Translations under genes and position numbers: made by a program
Notes under the pieces: model-generated
What the model was told of the DNA's origin: nothing
Databases searched by the model: none
What the model saw: only the letters and a program-made list of their open reading frames with translations
Part shown: in pieces, positions 9,028 through 52,814 of the stretch
Layout of the letters: the number at the start of each line of letters is the position of its first letter
Position numbering within the stretch: position 1 is the first letter of the stretch
DNA from: an uncultured Faecalibacterium sp.
GTDB taxonomy: Bacteria; Bacillota; Clostridia; Oscillospirales; Ruminococcaceae
Reading direction: 5' to 3'
Length of the DNA: 64,000 nt
Assembly (NCBI GenBank): GCA_937907025.1
Contig: CALESJ010000035.1
Location: 5,763-69,762, forward strand

Positions 9028-9112
9028 GCTACCGTCAAGGGTTTAAATTGTAATTTGTGCGATTAACCAAAAAAGTCCATGCTGTTTTGTTGCTTTTTGA
9101 CGGGGGCGGTCT

Positions 9113-9174
9113 GAGCCCCTTACGGGTCTCCGACCGGCTGCGGGAGCCCCTGGGGGTCTCCCTCCGCGGCGGCT
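9113..9174. repeat. Two tandem ~31-bp units, each containing an imperfect hairpin GAGCCCC-N4-GGGTCTC
   Basis: GAGCCCCTTACGGGTCTCC at 9113-9131 and GAGCCCCTGGGGGTCTCC at 9144-9161. Confidence 0.5.
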
Positions 9175-9321
9175 GTGCCGCCATGGGCCAATTTTACAGT
9201 TAACAGCAGCACAAAAAGCCCGTCACCACGGTGGCGGCAGGCAAAAGGTCGCTGCGCGGCATTAAAACGCGCCTAACAGAATTCAATGATGCGCAATTCG
9301 TCCGCCTTCGCGGACTTACGA

Positions 9322-10419
9322 TTAATGACTCTTTTTGAAAAATTGGAAGTCCGGGACTCCGAAAAATTGAGCCACTCGGTCAGGGTGTTGCAGTGGCAAG
9401 TTCGGCAATTCCTGGGCGAACATCTGCGCCGCCGATTTTCCGCCGAACATCTCACGAGGGTATGCGTTCAGCCAGTTCTGGGCTGCTGTTGCTTCTTTTT
9501 GCGTTGCGTTTCGCAGACTTTGTCCTTTCGGGAACATCCGGCGCAGCATCTTATTTCCATGCTCATTGCTGCCCCGTTCCCCCGGGCTTTGCGGATGGGC
9601 GTAAAACACCGTCACACCCGTTTTATCCATACCAGCCTGGTCTGCAAATTCGGCTCCGTTATCTAATGTCAGGGTGCGGAACAGCACATTATAGTCGTGC
9701 TTACCGAAGTACCGTCTTAACCGCTGCAATGCACTCACTGTATTGACAGCGGTTTTTTCTTTTACCTTTATCACAATGGACAGTCGGTATTTCCGGTCAG
9801 TCAGGGTCAGGCAGCTTTCGCCGATGCCGTGCTTTCCAATGATGCTATCGCCTTCCCAGTGACCAAACTGCTGCCGAGTCGATATAGCTTTGTCCCGACG
9901 CTCAATCGAGCGGTGATCTGGCCGGCTCGTCCGCATACGAACCACTCTGCCGTTTCGCTTTTTGGGATGACCTACCGGCAAATGCTCGTACGTCACACTT
10001 TCAAACAGGCCGCCTTGAATATACCGGTAACAAGTTGTCTTTGAAATACACATTTCAAACTTGCCAGATTGAGCAACCTGCTTGATTGCCGCATAGGGGC
10101 TATGCTTTGCCAGAATCGCCCTTTCAAGCGCTTGGAGATAGGCACGATTCTTCCCGATTTTGAGGTCTGGACCATGGGCTGTCTTTTGATAATCTGCATC
10201 CCTTTGAGCCACATCTGCCGAATAGGTACGAAAATATACCCAAGTCCTATAATTCAATTGCGTGACCTGGCCCCGTTTGAGCTCCTTACTAATGGTCTGT
10301 TGAGATACACCAATTTCCCGTGCAATAGCCGTTTGGGTTAATCCTTGCCGGTGCAGACATTCGATTCTTGCACGTTCGTCCGCCGTAAGGTGCTTACCCT
10401 TTCTTCGATTCTCATACAA
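9322..10419 (-). CDS. IS30-family DDE transposase
   Basis: The maximal ORF is 9322..10440. HTH is LTQTAIAREIGVSQQTISKELKR. The DDE core reads HWEGDSI / TLDNGAEF / NEHGNKMLRR. AGGAG plus 8 nt favours a TTG start at 10419. A hairpin with a 17-bp stem (10439-10484) lies just upstream. Confidence 0.85.
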   Translation of the reverse strand: MYENRRKGKHLTADERARIECLHRQGLTQTAIAREIGVSQQTISKELKRGQVTQLNYRTWVYFRTYSADVAQRDADYQKTAHGPDLKIGKNRAYLQALERAILAKHSPYAAIKQVAQSGKFEMCISKTTCYRYIQGGLFESVTYEHLPVGHPKKRNGRVVRMRTSRPDHRSIERRDKAISTRQQFGHWEGDSIIGKHGIGESCLTLTDRKYRLSIVIKVKEKTAVNTVSALQRLRRYFGKHDYNVLFRTLTLDNGAEFADQAGMDKTGVTVFYAHPQSPGERGSNEHGNKMLRRMFPKGQSLRNATQKEATAAQNWLNAYPREMFGGKSAAQMFAQELPNLPLQHPDRVAQFFGVPDFQFFKKSH

Positions 10420-16748: not shown

Positions 16749-16822
<74 letters not shown>

Positions 16823-16829
16823 TATGTAT

Positions 16830-16907
16830 GGTGCCTATGGCGCAGTTGGTTAGCGCGCCAGATTGTGGCTCTGGAGGCCGAGGGTTCGAATCCCTCTAGG
16901 CACCCCA
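16830..16907 (+). tRNA. tRNA-His (anticodon GTG), with G-1 and an encoded CCA
   Basis: An extra 5' G is present. Acceptor GTGCCTA/TAGGCAC, anticodon loop TTGTGGC, T-loop TTCGAAT, then C and CCA. Confidence 0.85.
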
Positions 16908-16982
16908 CCAAAGACCGCACAGTCCTTAAAAAGCTGCGCGGTCTTTTTTCTTAGCTTTTTGGCGGTCCAGGCCGCCTTTTGC

Positions 16983-17057
16983 TGGGCCGTAGCCAAGTGG
17001 TAAGGCAGCGGACTTTGACTCCGCCATTCGTGAGTTCGAACCTCGCCGGCCCAACCA
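16983..17057 (+). tRNA. tRNA-Gln (anticodon TTG), CCA encoded
   Basis: Acceptor TGGGCCG/CGGCCCA, anticodon stem GCGGA/TCCGC, loop CTTTGAC, T-loop TTCGAAC. Confidence 0.85.
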
Positions 17058-27867: not shown

Positions 27868-27951
27868 TGCCGGTGGTGGGGGTCGAACCCACACGGTATT
27901 GCTACCAACGGATTTTGAGTCCGTCTCGTCTGCCAATTCCAACACACCGGC
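27868..27951 (-). tRNA. tRNA-Leu (anticodon CAA), long variable arm
   Basis: Acceptor GCCGGTG/CACCGGC, anticodon stem ACGGA/TCCGT, loop CTCAAAA, T-loop TTCGACC. 84 nt, CCA not encoded. Confidence 0.85.
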
Positions 27952-43715: not shown

Positions 43716-44513
43716 TCATTCCACGCCGAAAACCCGGCGTGCGTTGGCGGCGCAGGTATCCAGCACCGTCTGGGCGTCTGTTTCCCACAGGCCGGCAATG
43801 TATCCGGCCACATGGATGATGTTGCGGCTGTCATTGCGGCGGCCACGCACCGGTTCCGGTGCCATGTAGGGGCAGTCGGTTTCCAGCACGGCACAGTCAT
43901 GGGGAATGGCGGCCAGCACTTTGGCGGCGCGTTTGGCGCCTTTGTAGGTCACCGCCCCGCCGAAGCCCAGGCACAGCCCCTGGGCCGTGAGCCAGGCGGC
44001 GTCCTCGGCGCTGCCGCTGTAACAGTGTAGCACGCCCCGGGGCTTGTACCGGCGCAGCAGCTCGTACATTTCGCCGTGGGCTTCCCGGTCGTGGATGGAC
44101 ACGGGCAGGTTCAGCTCGGCGGCCAGCTGCAGCTGGGCTTCAAACAGATCATACTGTTCCCGGGCGGGCAGGGGCCAGTGATGGTCCAGCCCGATCTCGC
44201 CCACAGCCACCACGGCCTTGTCCTCAAACAGCGGCCGCATGGCGTTCAGCTCTGCCCGCCAGTCGCCATGGTAGACGGCCACGGTGGGGGCGTCCTCCTC
44301 GCCCAGACTTTCGGGGTGAATGCCCAGGGCGGCATGGATGTAAGGGTAGGTGTGGGCCAGTTCCAGCACCCGGGGGGCATCCCCCGAGTGGGTGGCACAT
44401 TCCAGCACCCCCGCCACGCCGCCTTCCGGCAAGGCACGGCCCAGCAGGTCGGCCCGGTCGGCGTCGAACTGGCGGGAGGAATAGTGGGCATGGGTGTCAA
44501 AGATGTTGGTCAT
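43716..44513 (-). CDS. TatD-family metal-dependent hydrolase
   Basis: ATG at 44513 (MTNIFDTHAHY), with the conserved His/Asp/Glu pattern. Confidence 0.85.
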   Translation of the reverse strand: MTNIFDTHAHYSSRQFDADRADLLGRALPEGGVAGVLECATHSGDAPRVLELAHTYPYIHAALGIHPESLGEEDAPTVAVYHGDWRAELNAMRPLFEDKAVVAVGEIGLDHHWPLPAREQYDLFEAQLQLAAELNLPVSIHDREAHGEMYELLRRYKPRGVLHCYSGSAEDAAWLTAQGLCLGFGGAVTYKGAKRAAKVLAAIPHDCAVLETDCPYMAPEPVRGRRNDSRNIIHVAGYIAGLWETDAQTVLDTCAANARRVFGVE

Positions 44514-44529
44514 AAGGTACCTCGTATTT

Positions 44530-45477
44530 TCAGGCTGCCTTTTTGGGCTTGTTGACCAGGAAGATACCGCCGCACACCAGCACCAGAGCGGCCACATACT
44601 GCCACTCAAACAACGGCTCGGCATTGAGCACAGCCGAAAGCAGGGTGTTGACCACCGGAATCAGCAGCCCGAAAACGCTGATGCGGCTGACGGGGTTGTT
44701 CTTCATGAGCAGGGCCCACAGCACATATCCGGCGCCCGAAATAAAGGCCAGATACAGCAGAACCGGTACGGCAGCGGGGCTCTGGGGAGCCAGAGAGCCG
44801 CCCATGGCGAAGCCCAGCACGGCCAGAGCCAGACCGCCCACGCCCAGGTTCAGGCAGCAGACCGAGAAGCTGTCGGCTTTCTGGGTCACGGATTTGTTCC
44901 AGGGGCCGGCGAAGGCGAACACCGCCGAGGCAATGAGCATGGCCGAAACGCCCCAGGCGCTGCCGCCGCCGTGGTTGCCCAGAGTGGCCACCAGCACGCC
45001 GCCAAAGCCCAGCACACAGCCCAGAGCCTTGCGGGAGGTCATCCGGTCGGCGGCGCCGTAGATGAAATGGGCCAGGATCACACCCATGAAACTCTGGGTG
45101 CTGTTCAGGATGCCGCCGAAGGAGCCGGTCAGCTGGGCCACGGCCGAGTAGTAGAAGAAATACTGGGTAGCGGTCTGCCACAGACCCAGAGCGCAGCATT
45201 CGCCCAGCACCTTGCCGCGTGGCATGGGCAGGGGACGGCGTTCCATCAGGGAGCCGCACACCCAGACCAGCAGGCTGCCCAGCATGAACCGGACACCGGC
45301 AAAGCAAAGGATGGAGGGGGTATCGGCAGAATCAATCACAAACAGGCGGTACCCCATTTTGATGAAGGGAAACGCCGAGCCCCACAGGATGTTGCACAGG
45401 ACAGCCAGGGCCACCGCTGCGGTAGGAATAGAGAAAAGCGCATCAAGACGCGATTCCTGTACGGGTTTGGTTTCCAA
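44530..45477 (-). CDS. EamA/DMT-family transporter
   Basis: Ten TM helices in two EamA repeats. The TTG at 45477 with AAGGAAGG SD is preferred. The maximal ORF extends to 45549. Confidence 0.8.
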   Translation of the reverse strand: METKPVQESRLDALFSIPTAAVALAVLCNILWGSAFPFIKMGYRLFVIDSADTPSILCFAGVRFMLGSLLVWVCGSLMERRPLPMPRGKVLGECCALGLWQTATQYFFYYSAVAQLTGSFGGILNSTQSFMGVILAHFIYGAADRMTSRKALGCVLGFGGVLVATLGNHGGGSAWGVSAMLIASAVFAFAGPWNKSVTQKADSFSVCCLNLGVGGLALAVLGFAMGGSLAPQSPAAVPVLLYLAFISGAGYVLWALLMKNNPVSRISVFGLLIPVVNTLLSAVLNAEPLFEWQYVAALVLVCGGIFLVNKPKKAA

Positions 45478-45570
45478 AACGATGCCTTCCTTTGTTGGAA
45501 TAGTCAGCCTTTGGGCCGCATACAAAACCGGCGGCGCCCAAAACCGCAAGGCGGCGCCGTCGGTGCAAAA

Positions 45571-47553
45571 TCAGTGGATACGGGTGCCGACCGGTACGTC
45601 GTCACCGTAGAAGGCGATGGCGCAGCCGCCGTCGGCAGTGTCAGCGGCCATGATCATGCCCTCGCTGACATATTTGCCCTTCATCATCGGGCGGGGAGCC
45701 AGGTTGGCCACAATGGGCACACGCTTGCCCACCAGATCTTCCGGCTTGTACCACTTGGCAATGCCGGACAGGATGCAGCGCTCCTTCTCGCCGTCAAACA
45801 CGGTCAGATGCAGCAGCTTCTTGCTCTCCTTCATGGCTTCGCAGGCGCGGACTTCGGCCACCCGCATTTCCACCTTGCAGAAGGTGTCAAAGTCAATCTC
45901 TTCCTCGTGGTCGGTGATCTCGGCCACAGCCTCGGCCTTGGGGGCTTCGGGCTTGGCGGCCTCGGCAGCCTTGGCGGCGGCAGCGGCCTTGCGCTTGGCA
46001 TCCTCGGCTTCCAAGTAGGCGATCTCGGCCTTCACGTCGATGCGGGGGAACAGAACCTCCCCCTTGTGGACGGTGTAGGCGCTGCGCAGGGTGCCCATGG
46101 TGTCTTCCCGCAGCAGGTCGCTCAGCTCGTCGGCGCTTACGCCCAGCTGTTCGGCCATCTTGGGGGCGGTGTTGGGCAGGTAGGGCTGCAGCAGGGCGGC
46201 AATCAGTTCCAGCGCGCTGCACAGGTTGAACAGCACCGCGTTCAGGCGGGGCTTGTCCGCTTCGTTCTTAGCCAGCACCCAGGGCGCGGTTTCGTCAATG
46301 TACTTGTTGGCGCGCTGGACCAGCTCGAAAATGTGAGTCAGGGAAGTGGGCACGTCCAGGGCTTCCATGGAAGCATCCACCTTGCCGGGCAGTTCCCGCA
46401 TGATGGAAGCCAGGGCCTCATCCAGCGGGGCGTTGGTGACGGTGCCGCCAAAGTACTTTTCGCACATGGCCACGGTGCGGGACAGCAGATTGCCCAGGTC
46501 GTTGGCCAGGTCGGTGTTGATGCGGTTGATCAGGGCTTCGTTGGTGAAGGAACCGTCATTGCCAAAGGGCACTTCCCGCAGCAGAAAGTAGCGCACGGCG
46601 TCCACGCCGTAGCGGTCGCAGAGCTTGACCGGGTCCACCACATTGCCCTTGCTCTTGCTCATCTTGCCGCCGCCCAGCAGCAACCAGCCGTGGCCGAAAA
46701 CTTTCTTGGGCAGGGGCAGATCCAGAGCCATCAGCATGGCCGGCCAGATGATGGTGTGGAAACGCAGAATCTCTTTGCCCACCATGTGCACGTCCGCGGG
46801 CCAGTATTTGTCGTAGTCGTGGTAGGTGTCATTGCCGTAGCCCAGCGCGGTGATATAGTTGGAAAGTGCGTCGATCCAGACGTAGATGGTGTGCTTGGGG
46901 TCAAAGGGAACCTGAATGCCCCAGGACACGCTGGTACGGGACACGCAGGTATCCTGCAGACCCTGCTTGATGAAAGCGATCATCTCGTTCTTGCGGGTGG
47001 CGGGCTGGATGAAGTCGGGGTGGTCTTCATACCACTGGAGCAGCCGGTCGGCGTACTTGCTGGTCTTGAAGAAGTAGGCTTCCTCTTCGGCTTCGTAGAC
47101 GGGACCGCCGCAGTCGGGGCAGCAGCCGTCTTTCAGCTGGGCTTCGGTCCAAAAGCTCTCGCAGGGCTTGCAGTACATGCCCTTGTAGGTGCTCTTGTAA
47201 ATATCGCCCTTGTCGTGCAGGGTGGTGAAGATCTTCTGCACGCTCTTGACGTGGTAATCGTCGGTGGTGCGGATGAACCGGTCGTAGCTGACGTCCATGG
47301 TCTTCCACAGGTCCTTGACGGTGGCCACGATAGCGTCCACATATTCCTTCGGGGTCACGCCCTTTTCAGCAGCCTTGTCCTGAATCTTCTGGCCGTGCTC
47401 GTCGGTGCCGGTCAGGAACATGACATCATAGCCCTTGGCGCGCTTGTAGCGGGCCAGCGCATCGCAGGCCACGGTGGTGTAGCTGTGGCCGATGTGCAGC
47501 TTGTCGCTGGGGTAGTAAATGGGGGTGGTGATATAAAATTTCTTGTTTTCCAT
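45571..47553 (-). CDS. metG: Methionine--tRNA ligase (with a C-terminal tRNA-binding domain)
   Basis: ATG at 47553 (MENKKFYITTPIYYPSDKLHIGH). The KMSKS motif is present. Confidence 0.95.
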   Translation of the reverse strand: MENKKFYITTPIYYPSDKLHIGHSYTTVACDALARYKRAKGYDVMFLTGTDEHGQKIQDKAAEKGVTPKEYVDAIVATVKDLWKTMDVSYDRFIRTTDDYHVKSVQKIFTTLHDKGDIYKSTYKGMYCKPCESFWTEAQLKDGCCPDCGGPVYEAEEEAYFFKTSKYADRLLQWYEDHPDFIQPATRKNEMIAFIKQGLQDTCVSRTSVSWGIQVPFDPKHTIYVWIDALSNYITALGYGNDTYHDYDKYWPADVHMVGKEILRFHTIIWPAMLMALDLPLPKKVFGHGWLLLGGGKMSKSKGNVVDPVKLCDRYGVDAVRYFLLREVPFGNDGSFTNEALINRINTDLANDLGNLLSRTVAMCEKYFGGTVTNAPLDEALASIMRELPGKVDASMEALDVPTSLTHIFELVQRANKYIDETAPWVLAKNEADKPRLNAVLFNLCSALELIAALLQPYLPNTAPKMAEQLGVSADELSDLLREDTMGTLRSAYTVHKGEVLFPRIDVKAEIAYLEAEDAKRKAAAAAKAAEAAKPEAPKAEAVAEITDHEEEIDFDTFCKVEMRVAEVRACEAMKESKKLLHLTVFDGEKERCILSGIAKWYKPEDLVGKRVPIVANLAPRPMMKGKYVSEGMIMAADTADGGCAIAFYGDDVPVGTRIH

Positions 47554-47663
47554 GGGGGAAACATCCCTTTCCTTCAAAATCTCATCCAAAACACATTGAT
47601 TTCGTAAGCTGCGACCCGGCGGTCACATTCGGAACCCGGGCTGGCGGCATCGGGGACTGGTTT

Positions 47664-48404
47664 TCATTGGCGGCCTCCCATCTCGTCAAAACCGATGGGC
47701 TGCACACCGCAGGCAAGCAGCGCATGGCGGCACAGCACCTCGGTGCTGTCGATAAAGAAAGGTCCAAGCCCTTCATCGCGCTTGACCAGGCTCAGCTCGG
47801 TGCAGCCCAGCACGGCCATGTCACAGCCCTGGGCTTTCAGGTCGTCCACCGCGGCATTGAACACAGCCATGTCGGCCCGGCGGCCTTTTTTGATCTGGTC
47901 GTAGATCACCGACATGACCCCGGCCTGGTGGGCGGGGGAGGGCACAGCCCAGGGAAGGTCCGCCTCCCGGCACATGATCTGGTAGGTTTCGGCCTGCAGG
48001 GTGCCGTCGGTGGCCAGGATGCCCAGCTTTTTGCAGCCGGCGGCCTTGGCTTCGGCCACGGTCAGCCGGGGCATGTTCAGCACCGGCACCGGCAGGGCAG
48101 CGGCCAGACGGTCATAAAAATAATGCGCCGTGTTGCAGGGGATGGCCAGCACGGTGGCACCGTAGGCCACCAGACTTTCGCCATCCTTTTCCATCACGGT
48201 GAAGGGGTCTTCGTCGCTCTTGCCCAGGATGAAGGCGGTGCGGTCCGGGGTGGAGGCCCGGGAGGACAGCACCAGGTCGATATGATCCTGGTCGCGCACA
48301 GCGGGGGTGTGGTCGATGAGCATCTGATACAGATAACAGCTGGCGGCCGGGCCCAATCCGCCCAGAATCCCCAGCACTTGACGCTTCGGCTTGTTTTGTT
48401 CCAT
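47664..48404 (-). CDS. Aspartate racemase family protein
   Basis: ATG at 48404 with GGGAGGGG SD. The motifs are GILGGLGPAAS, IPCNTAH and LGCTELS, giving two catalytic Cys residues. Confidence 0.8.
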   Translation of the reverse strand: MEQNKPKRQVLGILGGLGPAASCYLYQMLIDHTPAVRDQDHIDLVLSSRASTPDRTAFILGKSDEDPFTVMEKDGESLVAYGATVLAIPCNTAHYFYDRLAAALPVPVLNMPRLTVAEAKAAGCKKLGILATDGTLQAETYQIMCREADLPWAVPSPAHQAGVMSVIYDQIKKGRRADMAVFNAAVDDLKAQGCDMAVLGCTELSLVKRDEGLGPFFIDSTEVLCRHALLACGVQPIGFDEMGGRQ

Positions 48405-48437
48405 ACACACCCCTCCCATTTTAAGCAGTACGTTTCT

Positions 48438-48466
48438 ATTATATCGCCCGGCGCTCCATTATGCAA
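48438..48466 (-). promoter_or_regulatory. Promoter of the aspartate racemase gene
   Basis: On the minus strand: TTGCAT, a 17-nt spacer, then TATAAT. Confidence 0.6.
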
Positions 48467-48472
48467 CCGGGG

Positions 48473-48507
48473 AAACCAAAAAGACCCTGCCCGACAGAAC
48501 AGGCAGG
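48473..48507 (-). terminator. Minus-strand intrinsic terminator (second of a tandem pair)
   Basis: CCTGCC-N10-GGCAGG followed by GUCUUUUUGGUUU. Confidence 0.45.
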
Positions 48508-48569
48508 AAAGAAGGATGCCCGCACGCATAGAGCGGAGGAAAGGGGCGAAAGCGGGAACCTGTACACAG

Positions 48570-48610
48570 AACAAAAGCCCCGGCGCACCGTTCTGTTGGT
48601 GCGCCGGGGC
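48570..48610 (-). terminator. Minus-strand intrinsic terminator closing the ORF-free tract
   Basis: A 13-bp stem GCCCCGGCGCACC/GGTGCGCCGGGGC with an 8-nt loop. CUUUUGU follows on the minus strand only. Confidence 0.65.
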
Positions 48611-50046
48611 GGTACTACTTGATTGGAGTCATAGCCTCATACCCTGTATTCGTTGTATGCAGATCATCGTTTCCAGAACTTGCGATGGTTTTGATCCGCT
48701 CCGTTGCGAAAGTGATTTCAGTGATCCGATCGATCGGATTTTTCAGGGTCTGCCATTGGAACTTGGGGTTTCGCTTACAAGAGGTTTGAAACGGTATCCC
48801 GGGATCTGCGTAAGCAGTCGAATCAGATTTGCCTTCCTTTTACTCAGGTTGGCCGGCCATTCAAGTTTGTTTCGGTTTCCATTTTACGGATTTTGTGCAG
48901 GTCACCCGAAAGGGAAGAACCTTTTACAACATCCTGATGGGTTACGATCCAATTTTGTCCGGTTTGATTTGCTGCGGTCTGTACGCAAAAACTTTTGCGT
49001 GGGAACGTACCTTTTAGAAGCGTTGGTTACCAAAGAACGGTTTGAACAGATTGCTGATCACTGAGGTTGCGGGTAAGGGTTTACTGCCAGAGGATGCATC
49101 CTCTTTTATCAACTGTACATTGGCGTTATCTCCTGTACGGTTAGATGAACGAAGATCGAACTTTTAAGGCTGAATCTTGCGATCCGAACCATTCAAATCT
49201 TACAAACTCTGGATACTTCCGGCCGTTATCTTGTTTCCCTTTTCTCAATCATACTTCCTTAGTGCTTCTCTTTCTTTTTTAAGGAAAGATTTTATCGGAA
49301 AGATCTGTCAAGAAGTTTTCTGTTACGCAAAACCTTCAGGCTTACGGGCCTTCCGATTTGTTTTGTAATCCAGGTCTTCCTTTCGGAATCCTTTGTTCGG
49401 GAATCACCGGCCACGAGGTCAGACTTTACGTTCCTTTCATCTAATCTATTCGAAACGCTTGGGGTCCAAACTTTGACGGGCCCTGGGTCTGCTGATCTCT
49501 ATTATACGAACCGATCATCGGTTTTTTGATCTTCTTTTACAGGTAATGACCTGCGGCTGTCAATGTGGTTCGTTTTTCTTCAGCAGGCCCAGGCCCGCCG
49601 GTGATGAATGGGATCTTTAAAGTTTGCCATGGGGCTGAGCCTCCTTTCTTACGAATCCCGCCGGCCTAGCCTTTGCACGTCTTTCAAGTTTTCCGATGGC
49701 CTTTCCGGTCTTCCCTTTACGGAGTCCCTGCAGTGTTCCCTTTGAAGCTGCCATTCCGTTTATCGAAACCAACTGGTTCCGAACCGGGGGTTCATGCTTT
49801 AGAGAAATCTTCTGCAAGCTGTCGAAAGAGTGTCCGTGCCTTTTTCGGTTCCTTTTGAAAGTGGCTACCTTGGAACTTTCTGTGGTTCCTTATCTCCGGC
49901 TGTTTTCTTTCTGTGACTATACTATATCACACGGGTCCGGGGGCGTCCATTCGCAGATGCGCCAAAGCTAAAATGGAATATTTGTTCATGTTATGGATGG
50001 AAATTGCATTGACAGATGTGGTATAATAAATATGTTCGGTGTAACT
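48611..50046 (-). ncRNA. Candidate large structured non-coding RNA(s), class unknown
   Basis: About 1.4 kb with no ORF longer than 91 aa and none with a plausible SD and protein-like composition. The minus strand is purine-rich with many GNRA-type loops and short perfect hairpins. The tract is bracketed by terminators. The strand call rests on terminator polarity and base composition only. Confidence 0.3.
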
Positions 50047-50099
50047 AAAAACGGGATGCAGCCCCCGCACAGGGGATTGCATCCCGTTTTGTTTTGTCA
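50047..50099. terminator. Bidirectional intrinsic terminator
   Basis: AAAACGGGATGCA..CCCC-GCAC-GGGG..TGCATCCCGTTTTGTTTTG. Confidence 0.7.
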
Positions 50100-50480
50100 G
50101 AAAACTGCCGGAAAAACTGCGATGTTGCGCAAGATACCCCATGCCAGCAGGGCGGCGATGTACCCGGCAACCAGTGCCAGCCAAAGGCGGCCGGGGCGGG
50201 TATCCCGCCACCAGAACCGCCATACAATCGCCGCCAGCAGGGGCGAAGTGGCCAGCAGAAAGGGATTGGCGGTCCAGGCGCCGGACCAGTCCCCCCGCAG
50301 CAGGCACAGGACCAGCGTGGTCACGCCGCAGCCGGGACATTGCAGGCCGGTCACCAGGCGGAAGGGGCAGGGGAGCCCGCCGAAACGGGCGGCAAACACC
50401 GCATAGACCGCCCCTGCACAGGCGAGGAACGCCAGGGTCCGCAGCTTGCGGCGCTTAGCCGGCGTAACGGTTGACAGCAT
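50097..50480 (-). CDS. DUF2752-family membrane protein
   Basis: 127 aa. The CPFRLVTGLQCPGCGVTT motif is present. It overlaps the upstream gene by 26 nt. Confidence 0.7.
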   Translation of the reverse strand: MLSTVTPAKRRKLRTLAFLACAGAVYAVFAARFGGLPCPFRLVTGLQCPGCGVTTLVLCLLRGDWSGAWTANPFLLATSPLLAAIVWRFWWRDTRPGRLWLALVAGYIAALLAWGILRNIAVFPAVF

Positions 50481-50952
50481 CCTGGAACAGAGCCAGATTG
50501 ATGATCTGGAAGCCGAACAGGGCGATGATCAGGTTGATGACGCCACTGTCCGATGTGCGGTTGAGGTAGGCCACCTTGCGGCCTATGACGTAGGCCCAGT
50601 AGAGGCCGTAAATGCCGCAGGTGATCAGGCTCAGCAGAAAGGCCACGAGGCCGCTGGGGGCGGTGGTATCGCCGGTCAGGTCGTTGATTTCGTCGTTGAG
50701 CACCACGAACCAGTAGATGGAATAGATGCCGCAGGTGATGATACTCAGGACGATGGCCAGGGCCACGCTGCGGCGGGGCCGCTGGTAAGCGGACTGGTAC
50801 ACCGGGCCGTCATGCGGGGGCTGCTCATAGCGGGGACCGTTTTCAGCGTGAGGCGGCTGGGTGTAGGACGATTCGGGCAGCGGGTTGCCGCAGTTGGGGC
50901 AGAAGCGGTCGTTGTCGGTGCAGGTGGCACCACAGCGGGGGCAGGTCTTCAT
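50455..50952 (-). CDS. Zinc-ribbon plus DUF4234-type membrane protein
   Basis: 165 aa. The N-terminus reads CPRCG..CPNCG, followed by two repeats of ITCGIY(S/G)(I/L)YW. Confidence 0.7.
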   Translation of the reverse strand: MKTCPRCGATCTDNDRFCPNCGNPLPESSYTQPPHAENGPRYEQPPHDGPVYQSAYQRPRRSVALAIVLSIITCGIYSIYWFVVLNDEINDLTGDTTAPSGLVAFLLSLITCGIYGLYWAYVIGRKVAYLNRTSDSGVINLIIALFGFQIINLALFQDAVNRYAG

Positions 50953-51010
50953 AGAGGGGTCCTCCTTCGCTTTTTATACATCCACCGGCGGCAGGGCCCG
51001 CCGGAAGAAT

Positions 51011-52768
51011 TTACATGCTTTCGGGGGCGCTGATCTTGAACATGGTCAGCACGTTGCGGATCACACCGCGCACGGCCAGGCACAGGGCAATACGGCCCTG
51101 CTGCACGGCATCCTCGGTGCCCAGAATACGGCAGGAGTTGTAGAAGCGGTGGAAGGCGCTGGCCAGGTCGATGACAAAGCGGGTGATGCGGGCCGGGTCG
51201 TACTTTTCGGCTGCTGCGGCGATCTCGGCAGGGAAGGCGGCCAGCAGACGGATCAGGGCCTGCTCGCTGGGGTCGGTGAGGACCGAAGCGTCCACGGCGT
51301 CAATGCCGCGGAAGGCGATGCCCTCGCTCTCCAACTTCTTCAGGATGGAGCAGATGCGGGCGTGGGCGTACTGCACATAGTACACCGGGTTCTCGCTGTC
51401 ATTGCGCACAGCCAGGTCCAGGTCAAAGTCCAGGGTGGAAGTGCTTTCCCGCTGGTTGAAGAAGAAGCGGGCGGAATCAATGGGCACCTCATCCAGCAGG
51501 TCGGTCAGGGTGATGGCCTTGCCGGTACGCTTGGACATACGCACGGGCTTGCCGTCGCGCATCAGGTTGACCATCTGCATCAGGACCACGTCCAGACGGC
51601 TGCCGTCCAGGCCCACGGCGTCCATGGCGCCCTTCATGCGGGCTACATGGCCGTGATGGTCGGCGCCCCACACGTCGATGGCCTTGTCAAAGCCGCGCAC
51701 GGCCAGCTTGTTGTAATGGTAGGCGATGTCGGCGGCAAAGTAGGTGGGAATGCCGTTGGCGCGCACCAGCACCTCGTCCTTGGCTTCCTCCTCGGAGCCG
51801 TCCTCGGTCTTGCGCTTGTTGACCACACCGTACTTGGCGGCAAACTGGGCGCTCTTGTACATGATGGCGCCGTCCTCGGCCTTGTAGCAGGCGCCGGACT
51901 CCAGCAGCTTGTCCACCACGGCCTTCACCGCGCCGGACTCGTGCAGGGTGCTCTCATGGAACCACACATCGTAGGTGATGCGGTATTTGCCCAGGTCGCG
52001 CTGCAGGCCTTCGATGTTCTTGGGCAGGGCGTAGTCGATGATAGCCTGCTTCAGCTCCTCAAAGTCGGCGTTCACATAGGCATCGCCGTGCTCGGCGGCA
52101 AAGTTCTTGGCGTGCTCGATGATATCGTGGCCCTGGTAGCATTCCTCGGGCAGGGGGCAGGCCTCCTCACCCTTGAACAGCTGCAGGTAGCGGATGGCCA
52201 GGCTCTTGCCGAACTTCTGGATCTGGTTGCCGGCGTCGTTGATGTAGAACTCGCGGGTCACATCATAGCCCGCCCAGTCCAGGCAGGCGGCCAGGCAGTC
52301 GCCCAGAGCGCCGCCGCGGGCGTTGCCCATGTGCATGGGACCGGTGGGGTTGGCGGAAACAAACTCCACGTTGTACTTTTTGCCGGCGCCCACGTCGGTG
52401 CGGCCGTATTCAGACTCGGAGCAGGCTGCGCGGACCACATCGGTGAACCAGCCGTTGCCCAGATACAGGTTGATGAAGCCGGGACCGGCGATCTCCACCC
52501 GGTCAAAGGGGCTGCCGGTCAGGTCCAGGCAGCCCACGATGGCCTCGGCAATCTGACGGGGAGCCTTATGGAACACACGCGCACCGGCCATGGCCAGGTT
52601 GCAGGCCACGTCGCCGTTCTTCACGTCCGCCGGAATTTCCACAATGTAGGCGGGCAGTTCGGCACGGGGCAGCGCGCCGGACTCCATGGCGGCTTCGGCG
52701 GCGTTCTGCAGCAGACCGCGGGCCGCATCCAGAGCGGCCTGGCGGGGGTTGTAGTGTTCGTAATTCAT
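51011..52768 (-). CDS. argS: Arginine--tRNA ligase
   Basis: ATG at 52768 with GGAGG SD. The HIGH-region motif is SANPTGPMHMGN. The DALR anticodon-binding domain is at the C-terminus. Confidence 0.95.
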   Translation of the reverse strand: MNYEHYNPRQAALDAARGLLQNAAEAAMESGALPRAELPAYIVEIPADVKNGDVACNLAMAGARVFHKAPRQIAEAIVGCLDLTGSPFDRVEIAGPGFINLYLGNGWFTDVVRAACSESEYGRTDVGAGKKYNVEFVSANPTGPMHMGNARGGALGDCLAACLDWAGYDVTREFYINDAGNQIQKFGKSLAIRYLQLFKGEEACPLPEECYQGHDIIEHAKNFAAEHGDAYVNADFEELKQAIIDYALPKNIEGLQRDLGKYRITYDVWFHESTLHESGAVKAVVDKLLESGACYKAEDGAIMYKSAQFAAKYGVVNKRKTEDGSEEEAKDEVLVRANGIPTYFAADIAYHYNKLAVRGFDKAIDVWGADHHGHVARMKGAMDAVGLDGSRLDVVLMQMVNLMRDGKPVRMSKRTGKAITLTDLLDEVPIDSARFFFNQRESTSTLDFDLDLAVRNDSENPVYYVQYAHARICSILKKLESEGIAFRGIDAVDASVLTDPSEQALIRLLAAFPAEIAAAAEKYDPARITRFVIDLASAFHRFYNSCRILGTEDAVQQGRIALCLAVRGVIRNVLTMFKISAPESM

Positions 52769-52814
52769 GTTTGAAACCTCCGTTTTCAAGTAAAAATCCC
52801 CAATGAGGATGCGC

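Follow-up and report, generated by a model that had tools for sequence, protein, structure and literature searches.

To our knowledge, only a few large conserved RNAs of unknown function have been described in bacteria (OLE, ROOL, GOLLD and raiA), and each of them has opened new biology. Dual-function RNAs, such as RNAIII/hld of Staphylococcus aureus, SR1/SR1P of Bacillus subtilis and SgrS/SgrT, are stand-alone structured RNAs that combine their own promoter and terminator with a small open reading frame (ORF) preceded by a good ribosome-binding site. In the ermC leader and the STAB-SD of cryIIIA, a short ORF or a Shine–Dalgarno (SD) sequence overlaps alternative pairings and ribosome binding remodels or protects the RNA; protection of RNA by ribosomes or SD sequences is established in the Firmicutes. 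Here we examine a gene-free tract of an uncultured Faecalibacterium sp. genome (contig CALESJ010000035.1 of assembly GCA_937907025.1; the window is the whole stretch of 64,000 nucleotides that was analysed), in which an earlier note, made from the letters of the sequence, had proposed one or more large structured RNAs between positions 48611 and 50046. We show that the tract holds the gene for one large RNA, and we define its boundaries, its family, its conserved structure and the selection acting on its core. By architecture its closest analogues are RNAIII and SR1 among the dual-function RNAs and OLE, ROOL and GOLLD among the orphan large RNAs.

About 1.68 kb separates an aspartate/glutamate-racemase gene from a DUF2752 gene, and the longest ORF on either strand of this interval encodes 91 aa, as had been stated before. 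Other assemblies of the window species show an equal gene-free gap. The tract has a G+C content of 0.40-0.50 against 0.58-0.71 in its flanks, and its minus strand is 56.9% purine (A = 33%), in agreement with the lower G+C and the purine-rich strand already remarked upon. A consensus scan detected a sigma-70-type promoter on the minus strand (TGGACG-17-TGaTATAGT, 49949-49921), which the earlier note had failed to find, and a transcription start near 49914 is likely. The intrinsic terminator with a 13-bp stem, the second terminator behind it and the bidirectional hairpin facing the DUF2752 gene were all recovered as predicted (Table 1). The unit has a promoter and an intrinsic terminator of its own, both conserved together with the RNA. 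Neither the block CTGCGAATRGAC nor the -10 region varies across 11 species of Gemmiger, in contrast to the 17-nt spacer; invariant hexamers around a free spacer are the signature of a promoter. The motif is also present in Faecalibacterium, and in the 2.3 Mb of loci that were fetched TGCGAATRGAC occurs 142 times, each time at the promoter of this RNA. G·U pairs in the conserved helices identify the minus strand as the RNA strand, from which a discrete transcript would be made. One RNA of about 1.35 kb thus replaces the one or several previously envisaged, and positions 49915-50046 are promoter and upstream sequence, not RNA.

A wider regulon sharing this promoter was considered and rejected: the two other regular-expression matches in the window are weak and at chance level, and the core motif has no further copies in the 2.3 Mb. 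On the opposite strand, a promoter-like site (TGGAAA-18-TGgTATAAT, 49998-50027, plus TTGACA at 50009) is directed away from the RNA gene and into the bidirectional terminator at 50048-50090. Gemmiger species strongly conserve the block containing it (49998-50036), including those in which argS is the immediate upstream neighbour. Its role could be that of a divergent promoter, for an antisense or very short RNA, or that of a regulatory or UP-like site serving the RNA promoter.

Relatives were obtained as one locus per species, fetched through the flanking gene for methionyl-tRNA synthetase (MetRS); the genome collection was thus sampled via metG synteny, and a metagenome scan gave mostly one abundant lineage. 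Fetched loci and contigs carry L-numbers (e.g. L012 and L107). We assign the window to a Gemmiger species, its MetRS being 97% identical to that of Gemmiger metagenome-assembled genomes. Homologous RNAs are present, as a single-copy gene, in Gemmiger, Faecalibacterium and 'Subdoligranulum' (more than 44 species-level loci), and in 103 metagenome contigs that added little diversity except for forms of 499 and 817 nt. Identity across the whole tract is 82-88% in the nearest species, and more distant Gemmiger are alignable only in parts. A profile built with nhmmer from the Faecalibacterium RNAs matches the window RNA in short blocks only, and the case for homology between the genera is accordingly built on the promoter, the 3' module, synteny and shared helices. 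The family is delimited by the promoter motif, the 3' motif GAGGCU(U)AUGACUCC-RAAGAAGUAAG and the terminator. Lengths range from 499 nt (L107) to 1419 nt, with about 640 nt in the F. prausnitzii group, about 920 nt in the L020 group through tandem duplication of a 260-nt module, 1110-1170 nt in the L059 group, 1007-1419 nt in Gemmiger, and 499 nt (L107) and 817 nt in compact metagenomic RNAs of Gemmiger type. This conservation across Gemmiger and Faecalibacterium is what the earlier note had required of its proposal in relatives.

One metagenome contig (L181) carries a chimeric RNA whose 5' 340 nt are of Faecalibacterium type and whose 3' 400 nt match the Gemmiger L089 type at 99.7% identity. 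This is most likely an assembly join at a shared block, real recombination being the alternative.

No described RNA family accounts for the tract. At gathering score, Rfam 15 returned four tRNAs and nothing else for the whole window (a cluster of three at 16749-17054 on the plus strand and an isolated one at 27868-27951 on the minus strand), and at E<=10 the tract itself gave chance-level matches only, the best scoring 17.9 bits against a gathering score of 40 (E=2.4). Six related loci yielded a single T-box. The covariance models of OLE, ROOL, GOLLD, HEARO, raiA and every other Rfam 15 family consequently leave the RNA unassigned, as had already appeared by eye. ARAGORN found neither a tRNA nor a tmRNA in 48300-50200. 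Like tmRNA (SsrA), the RNA is structured and harbours a short internal frame predicted to engage ribosomes; unlike tmRNA, it has no tRNA-like domain, and its reading frame has its own SD and AUG, so that initiation would be canonical and not trans-translation. Literature searches found no description of the RNA; it is not in a survey of non-coding RNAs in 50 genomes (PMC11109978), and its sequence strings do not occur in the 200 files searched among the 408 supplementary files of PMC8040213. We conclude that it is a new family within a known kind, the large bacterial structured or dual-function RNA. It shares with OLE, ROOL, GOLLD, raiA and HEARO a size class (0.5-1.4 kb here), a conserved core, long-range helices, variable expansions and an apparently narrow range, but differs in matching no covariance model and in its sparser predicted pairing (89 pairs in about 640 nt by RNAalifold). 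We know of no conserved modules resembling translation-initiation sites in those RNAs, unlike the present one.

Evidence for a conserved structure came from compensatory change. Among 24 full-length Faecalibacterium RNAs, in which 97.7% of cells are paired, we counted 18 double-change pairs against 5.8±1.7 in shuffled alignments, none of 500 shuffles reaching 18, and against 2-10 in slid controls. One helix, Px, is complementary in every tested lineage despite differing sequences and inserts of 67-334 nt. Covariation was thus found, above controls within the Faecalibacterium set and, for Px, across lineages, as the proposal of a structured RNA had called for. RNAalifold produced no consensus fold from a joint alignment of the ORF domain of Gemmiger and Faecalibacterium; we therefore treated each genus on its own and matched homologous helices by position. 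Thermodynamic folding was less uniform. When 300-nt windows of the RNA strand were compared with dinucleotide shuffles, better folding was confined to RNA positions 301-600 (z=-4.45) and to the 3' end with the terminator (z=-4.6), and the rest of the interior (z about 0 to -0.9) was no better than the shuffles. The claim that the tract is dense in hairpins thus holds for these two segments and is at chance elsewhere; since most windows fold like shuffles, hairpin density alone does not exceed chance. The perfect hairpins listed in the earlier note do exist, with coordinates that were off by 1-13 nt and are corrected in Table 1.

Selection was assessed from nucleotide diversity (pi) in 100 sequences of one abundant Gemmiger lineage, with argS sites from the same contigs as reference. 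The 5' leader with hairpin P1 has a pi of 0.002, the 16-codon ORF (ORF1) 0.0012, the lowest in the RNA, and other core blocks 0.002-0.004, as compared with 0.0020 at argS codon positions 1+2. The expansions reach 0.010-0.020, and argS four-fold degenerate sites 0.0122. With core diversity at about 0.001-0.003, the core is constrained like amino-acid-changing sites, and hence under purifying selection, and the expansions are close to neutral. These data also bear on whether the tract is merely a decayed gene, the scar of a mobile element or a functionless spacer. Its low G+C and a fast-evolving interior that folds no better than chance would suit such an origin, which is a fair description of the expansions E1-E3. 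For the core it is contradicted, and we give it hardly any credence for the gene as a whole: a single-copy unit that keeps its promoter, core and terminator in two genera, with covarying helices and diversity at the non-synonymous level, is not what decay would leave. None of the ten tract ORFs of at least 40 aa had a meaningful match in Pfam or PHROGs, ORFs in other frames are not conserved across species, and a 'distant' blastn search of phage and plasmid collections returned no match to the tract. The only internal repeats are short and chance-like. With neither an ORF homologue nor a remnant of a protein gene or mobile element in these searches, the tract is not a protein-coding gene or pseudogene, and the degraded gene or element against which the earlier note had cautioned was not encountered.

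The usual gene order is argS > RNA > (racemase) > metG, which raised the possibility that the RNA is a cis-regulatory leader of the racemase-metG operon or a 3' untranslated region of argS. The position of the RNA, usually between argS and metG, speaks for this. Other observations already contradict it and make it very improbable. The RNA is served by a promoter of its own, and the racemase promoter is preceded by two strong terminators. In L013 argS is kept as the sole neighbour and the RNA faces an HD-domain gene, and in the F. prausnitzii group the RNA can sit kilobases from metG, or on the opposite strand relative to it. Because promoter and terminator are retained where the neighbours differ, the RNA gene is autonomous. 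In Faecalibacterium, moreover, metG has a T-box of its own, which lies downstream of the RNA's terminator. The window has no T-box match, and with a separate promoter and a variable context the RNA does not qualify as a T-box or other cis-acting leader of metG or argS.

Several features of the neighbourhood were recorded beside these comparisons. The T-box ahead of Faecalibacterium metG is detected by Rfam in L027 (6266-6532), and its GGTGGTACCAC motif was seen by eye in L044 (~9680-9990) and L059 (~9560-9990). The window metG (region 47590-47663) lacks such a leader and is apparently transcribed together with the racemase gene. Only in the window species and the relatives nearest to it (L005-L007) are argS and the RNA separated by a DUF4234-DUF2752 pair (window 50097-50952); the RNA promoter directly follows argS in L009-L012, L072 and L089. 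In one abundant Gemmiger lineage, represented by IMG/VR contigs L083-L090 (e.g. L084 1-11800), a prophage with one Phage_Gp15 match and one 1073-aa ORF lies directly downstream of the RNA terminator, and these 'viral' contigs start or stop at the RNA gene. The 3' end of the RNA might serve as a phage integration site, in the manner of tRNA and tmRNA genes; the searched ORFs beside the RNA in the IMG/VR contigs included no integrase, and att repeats were not looked for.

Comparison of the 499-nt form (L107) with the window RNA distinguished a conserved, structured core of about 500 nt from three fast-evolving expansions that make up more than half of the window copy. The large structured RNA proposed by the earlier note is accordingly supported for the minus strand, with the qualification that much of its length is lineage-specific. 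The expansions sprout from helix P2, from Px and from the segment ahead of the 3' module. At the 5' end, a purine-rich leader, invariant in Gemmiger, leads into P1, which covaries in both genera: Gemmiger variants include GGAAU/AUUCC, GGAGC/GCUCC and GGAG/CUCC, and in Faecalibacterium the pair 31/43 is CG in 17 sequences, AU in 4 and UA in 3. A GCCGG/CCGGC helix shows a compensatory change in L010. P2, predicted from 8 Gemmiger sequences with 7 unbroken pairs, has compensated differences in L012/L072 and L013, and encloses E1, which varies between lineages from 0 nt (L107) to about 400 nt. The last codons and the stop codon of ORF1 form one side of a long-range helix with 19 predicted pairs that covaries within and between genera. 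In L012/L072 the ORF1 changes CGG>CAG and GCC>GCU are each compensated in it, and its positional homologue in Faecalibacterium, GACAGG/CCUGUC, is GC in 16 sequences and AU in 8 and is never broken. The post-ORF1 domain is nearly invariant in sequence, with 98-100% pairing. The palindromic hairpin AACCGAUGAUCGGUU was rejected as the conserved fold of this region, its GGUUCG pairing instead with CGAACC in every Gemmiger species. Beyond E2, which lies inside Px, a short module that we term MY is followed by a hairpin for which L107 substitutes AAGGCG-AAA-CGCCUU, a further instance of covariation. E3 is poorly conserved and A-rich, with 0-30% invariant columns in 8 Gemmiger species, some GNRA-capped hairpins and a fold no better than shuffles; the segment corresponding to it spans 59 nt in L107 and 476 nt in the window. 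An invariant ACCC/GGGU helix plausibly closes E3.

Table 1. Features of the RNA gene and its surroundings, as identified or predicted, in window coordinates
Feature	Coordinates	Strand	Description
DUF2752 gene	50097-50480	minus	flanks the tract
Bidirectional hairpin	50048-50090	both	terminator scan, inverted repeat
A/T-rich conserved upstream region	49957-50046	minus	includes opposite-strand promoter-like site
Promoter	49916-49956	minus	CTGCGAATGGACG; -35 TGGACG 49949-49944, 17-nt variable spacer, TGaTATAGT (ATAGT), -10 at 49926-49921
RNA gene, ~1.35 kb	48570-49914	minus	promoter to terminator; homologous units in relatives
5' leader and hairpin P1	49872-49914	minus	leader CACAGAAAGAAAACAGCCGGAGAUAAGG, purine-rich, invariant in Gemmiger
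P1	49889-49885 with 49876-49872	minus	GGAAC with GUUCC; covaries in both genera
Helix GCCGG/CCGGC	49900-49896 with 49664-49660	minus	compensatory change in L010
Helix P2	49861-49855 with 49687-49681	minus	CUUUCAA with UUGAAAG; encloses E1
Expansion E1	49854-49688	minus	0 nt (L107) to ~400 nt between lineages
ORF1 SD site	49640-49649	minus	AGAAAGGAGG; 9-nt spacer to AUG
ORF1, 16 codons	49580-49630	minus	MANFKDPIHHRRAWAC and stop; AAGGAGG 9 nt upstream
Long-range helix	49599-49580 with 49495-49475	minus	ORF1 codons 11-16 and stop with UCAGCAGACCCAGGGCCCGUC; inverted repeat, 19 pairs predicted
Post-ORF1 domain	49506-49573	minus	CGAACC 49573-49567 with GGUUCG 49512-49506; hairpin GCAGGU 49554-49549 with ACCUGU 49544-49539
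Hairpin AACCGATCATCGGTT	49509-49523	plus	corrected coordinates
Helix Px	49444-49436 with 49149-49141	minus	UUAGAUGAA with UUCAUCUAA; encloses E2
Expansion E2	49435-49150	minus	inside Px
MY module	49109-49133	minus	GGAG 49133-49130, 9-nt spacer, AUG UAC AGU UGA 49120-49109; M-Y-S-stop
Hairpin after MY module	49089-49105	minus	AGAGGAUGCAUCCUCU; a 'perfect hairpin' of the earlier note
Hairpin AGAGGATGCATCCTCT	49089-49104		corrected coordinates
Expansion E3	~48651-49076	minus	poorly conserved, A-rich, some GNRA-capped hairpins
Hairpin ACGCAAAAACTTTTGCGT	48983-49000	plus	corrected coordinates
Hairpin TCCGATCGATCGGA	48725-48738		corrected coordinates
3' module	48611-48650	minus	GGGUAUGAGGCUAUGACUCCAAUCAAGUAG; GAGGCUAUGACUCC at 48638-48625; common to Gemmiger and Faecalibacterium
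Intrinsic terminator	48568-48610	minus	13-bp stem 48610-48577 and U-run; stem covaries
Second, back-up terminator	48478-48508	minus	hairpin 48508-48485; terminator scan
Racemase-metG operon promoter	48438-48466	minus	outside the RNA; TTGCAT-17-TATAAT, inferred by reading the sequence
Aspartate/glutamate-racemase gene	47664-48419	minus	flanks the tract

The 16-codon ORF with a perfect SD, which had been picked out in the earlier note, proved not to be incidental, being the best-conserved part of the RNA. Ten nucleotides upstream of it (AGAAAGGAGG) would pair with the usual 3' end of 16S rRNA. Across the family the SD is invariant as A[AG]GGAG[GC], 8-10 nt separate it from the AUG, and both start and stop codon are retained. 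ORF1 is open in all 53 loci (25 distinct sequences) and has the same length of 16 codons in the two genera, although the peptides differ: MANFKDPIHHRRAWAC in Gemmiger, MANAEPAQFGQAVGTR in L020 and MVDMEPAQQGQAVGVR in F. prausnitzii. In two lineages 3 nt are deleted in frame. What the two genera have in common is the frame and not the peptide. ORF1 is broken in a pair of metagenome contigs (L097 and L129), one of which has gained 2 nt and the other lost about 46 nt; these could be assembly errors or rare natural variants and bear on whether ORF1 must stay open.

It could be supposed that the RNA is simply a messenger encoding a functional peptide of 16 residues, the remainder being long structured untranslated regions. 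The perfect translation-initiation site fits this, as do the low polymorphism of ORF1 and the near invariance of the Gemmiger peptide, in which 5 variable codons are synonymous and 2 non-synonymous; correspondingly, 5 of the 7 variable sites are synonymous in the ORF1 frame as against 0/7 and 3/7 in the other two frames. Together with the SD, its spacing, the frame kept open across loci and the in-frame deletion, this 5:2 ratio is indirect evidence for translation of ORF1. The Faecalibacterium peptide (MVDMEPAQQGQAVGVR), however, is unrelated to that of Gemmiger in sequence and charge and varies freely, the ORF accounts for less than 10% of the conserved, covarying core, and the invariance extends to synonymous sites and flanks, as a constraint on RNA predicts. 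Furthermore, no genes for processing, export or a receptor accompany the RNA gene across loci. We consider a peptide messenger improbable, and the ORF1 peptide is probably not the conserved product.

The MY module lies directly 3' of Px and resembles the initiation region of ORF1. It has the form RGGAG-N5-7-YCC-R-AUG-UAC-stop, which is conserved between genera, and modules of this type number 1-4 per RNA, always with a stop within 1-5 codons. L020 has duplicated the module set as a unit. The duplication, shared by the Faecalibacterium lineage L020/L024/L025, is a tandem one of about 260 nt that includes an SD-AUG-UAC-stop module (L020 segments 9094-9170 / 9357-9433 and 9239-9302 / 9493-9556), and the RNA seems to grow by module duplication.

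The same modules suggest an alternative, namely that the RNA is a protein sponge or scaffold whose SD-like GGAG modules and single-stranded conserved blocks bind a CsrA-like or other protein, the 'ORFs' being untranslated. The window module ACAGGAG resembles CsrA sites (CAGGAUG), and the RNA has in common with CsrB/RsmZ its repeated GGA or SD-like motifs, its A-rich non-coding character and its duplicable modules, which occur 1-4 times per RNA and were doubled in the L020 tandem duplication. The many invariant blocks that are predicted to be unpaired would also be explained, as would the lack of a coding-like substitution pattern in Faecalibacterium. On the other hand, the motifs are far fewer than in CsrB-type RNAs (2-5 GGAG modules per RNA, compared with about 9-22 GGA sites there), and the GGA is placed in the 5' strand of a 3-4-bp stem rather than in a hairpin loop. 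The AUG codons and short ORFs that follow, with their optimal spacing, in-frame stops within 1-5 codons and fixed length of 16 codons, would be needless for protein binding. We therefore regard a sponge as unlikely.

The gene and its family are well supported; from the arrangement of the initiation sites within the fold we infer how the RNA may work. Our preferred reading, which we hold to be probable, is that a single, independently transcribed gene outside Rfam 15 encodes a large RNA acting as a regulator or scaffold gated by ribosome loading. The molecule would act as RNA, and loading of ribosomes or 30S subunits on its embedded initiation sites would gate or stabilize it. Initiation at ORF1 and the MY module would have to melt the initiation-site hairpin, the long-range helix and Px. 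A 30S footprint on the start sites would overlap these elements and the hairpin that follows, so that the closed fold and loading would be mutually exclusive, which is why a ribosome-gated or ribosome-stabilized regulatory or scaffold RNA is favoured. In this way the fold of the RNA, and probably its stability as well, would report or buffer translational capacity. A stronger version, in which the RNA represents a new class of ribosome-engaging structured RNA whose closed and open states are switched by 30S or 70S loading at the 16-codon ORF and the 2-5-codon 'minigenes', making it a sensor, buffer or sink of translational capacity, is a tentative possibility.

Several observations weigh against ribosome gating of a structured RNA. 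Both the transcript and the translation of its ORFs are predictions from sequence. A hairpin is predicted to enclose both the SD and the AUG of ORF1 (one covarying pair, AU in 8, GC in 5 and GU in 2 sequences), which could mean that these sites are never used. The Gemmiger ORF domain has only 3 double-change pairs, a number reached by 24 of 500 shuffles, and most core helices are too conserved to covary. RNAalifold leaves many conserved blocks unpaired, which would also fit protein binding. As to coding, the variable sites of Faecalibacterium ORF1 are spread evenly over the codon positions (13/14/16), and 2 of the 5 synonymous changes in Gemmiger ORF1 double as compensated RNA pairs (TTT/TTC with A/G upstream of the SD, and GCC/GCT with G/A downstream); the coding signal is therefore partly confounded with structure.

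The proposed gating has its nearest precedents in the leader-peptide attenuators and STAB-SD elements, which resemble this RNA in having a short ORF or SD that overlaps RNA pairings (predicted here), but are 5' leaders of protein genes, whereas no protein gene lies downstream in this transcript. The dual-function RNAs share its stand-alone structured form, with promoter, terminator and a small ORF behind a good ribosome-binding site. They differ in being two to three times shorter and in having no sequence or Rfam relationship to it, and also in that the ORF here has 16 codons, encodes a peptide without conservation between genera, is held in a long-range helix and is accompanied by extra modules of 2-5 codons.

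Two long ORFs antisense to metG and argS (window 44494-47607, 1037 aa, and 50885-52774, 629 aa, both on the plus strand) are the usual artefacts of high G+C and not genes.

Here we have characterized an RNA gene that accounts for the conspicuous 0.6-1.7 kb gene-free gap between argS and metG in these genomes, and that annotators can recognize from the promoter CTGCGAATRGAC...TATAVT, the 3' motif GAGGCU(U)AUGACUCC and the terminator. Its build is unusual, a covarying core being arranged around a strong ribosome-binding site, a mini-ORF of fixed length and 'start-Tyr-stop' modules, and its compact versions of 500-640 nt are suited to structural and genetic work. The hosts, Faecalibacterium and Gemmiger, are very common in the human gut and the RNA is missing from the Rfam 15 annotation library. 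If ribosome gating is real, this family would constitute a new class of RNA in dominant human gut commensals.

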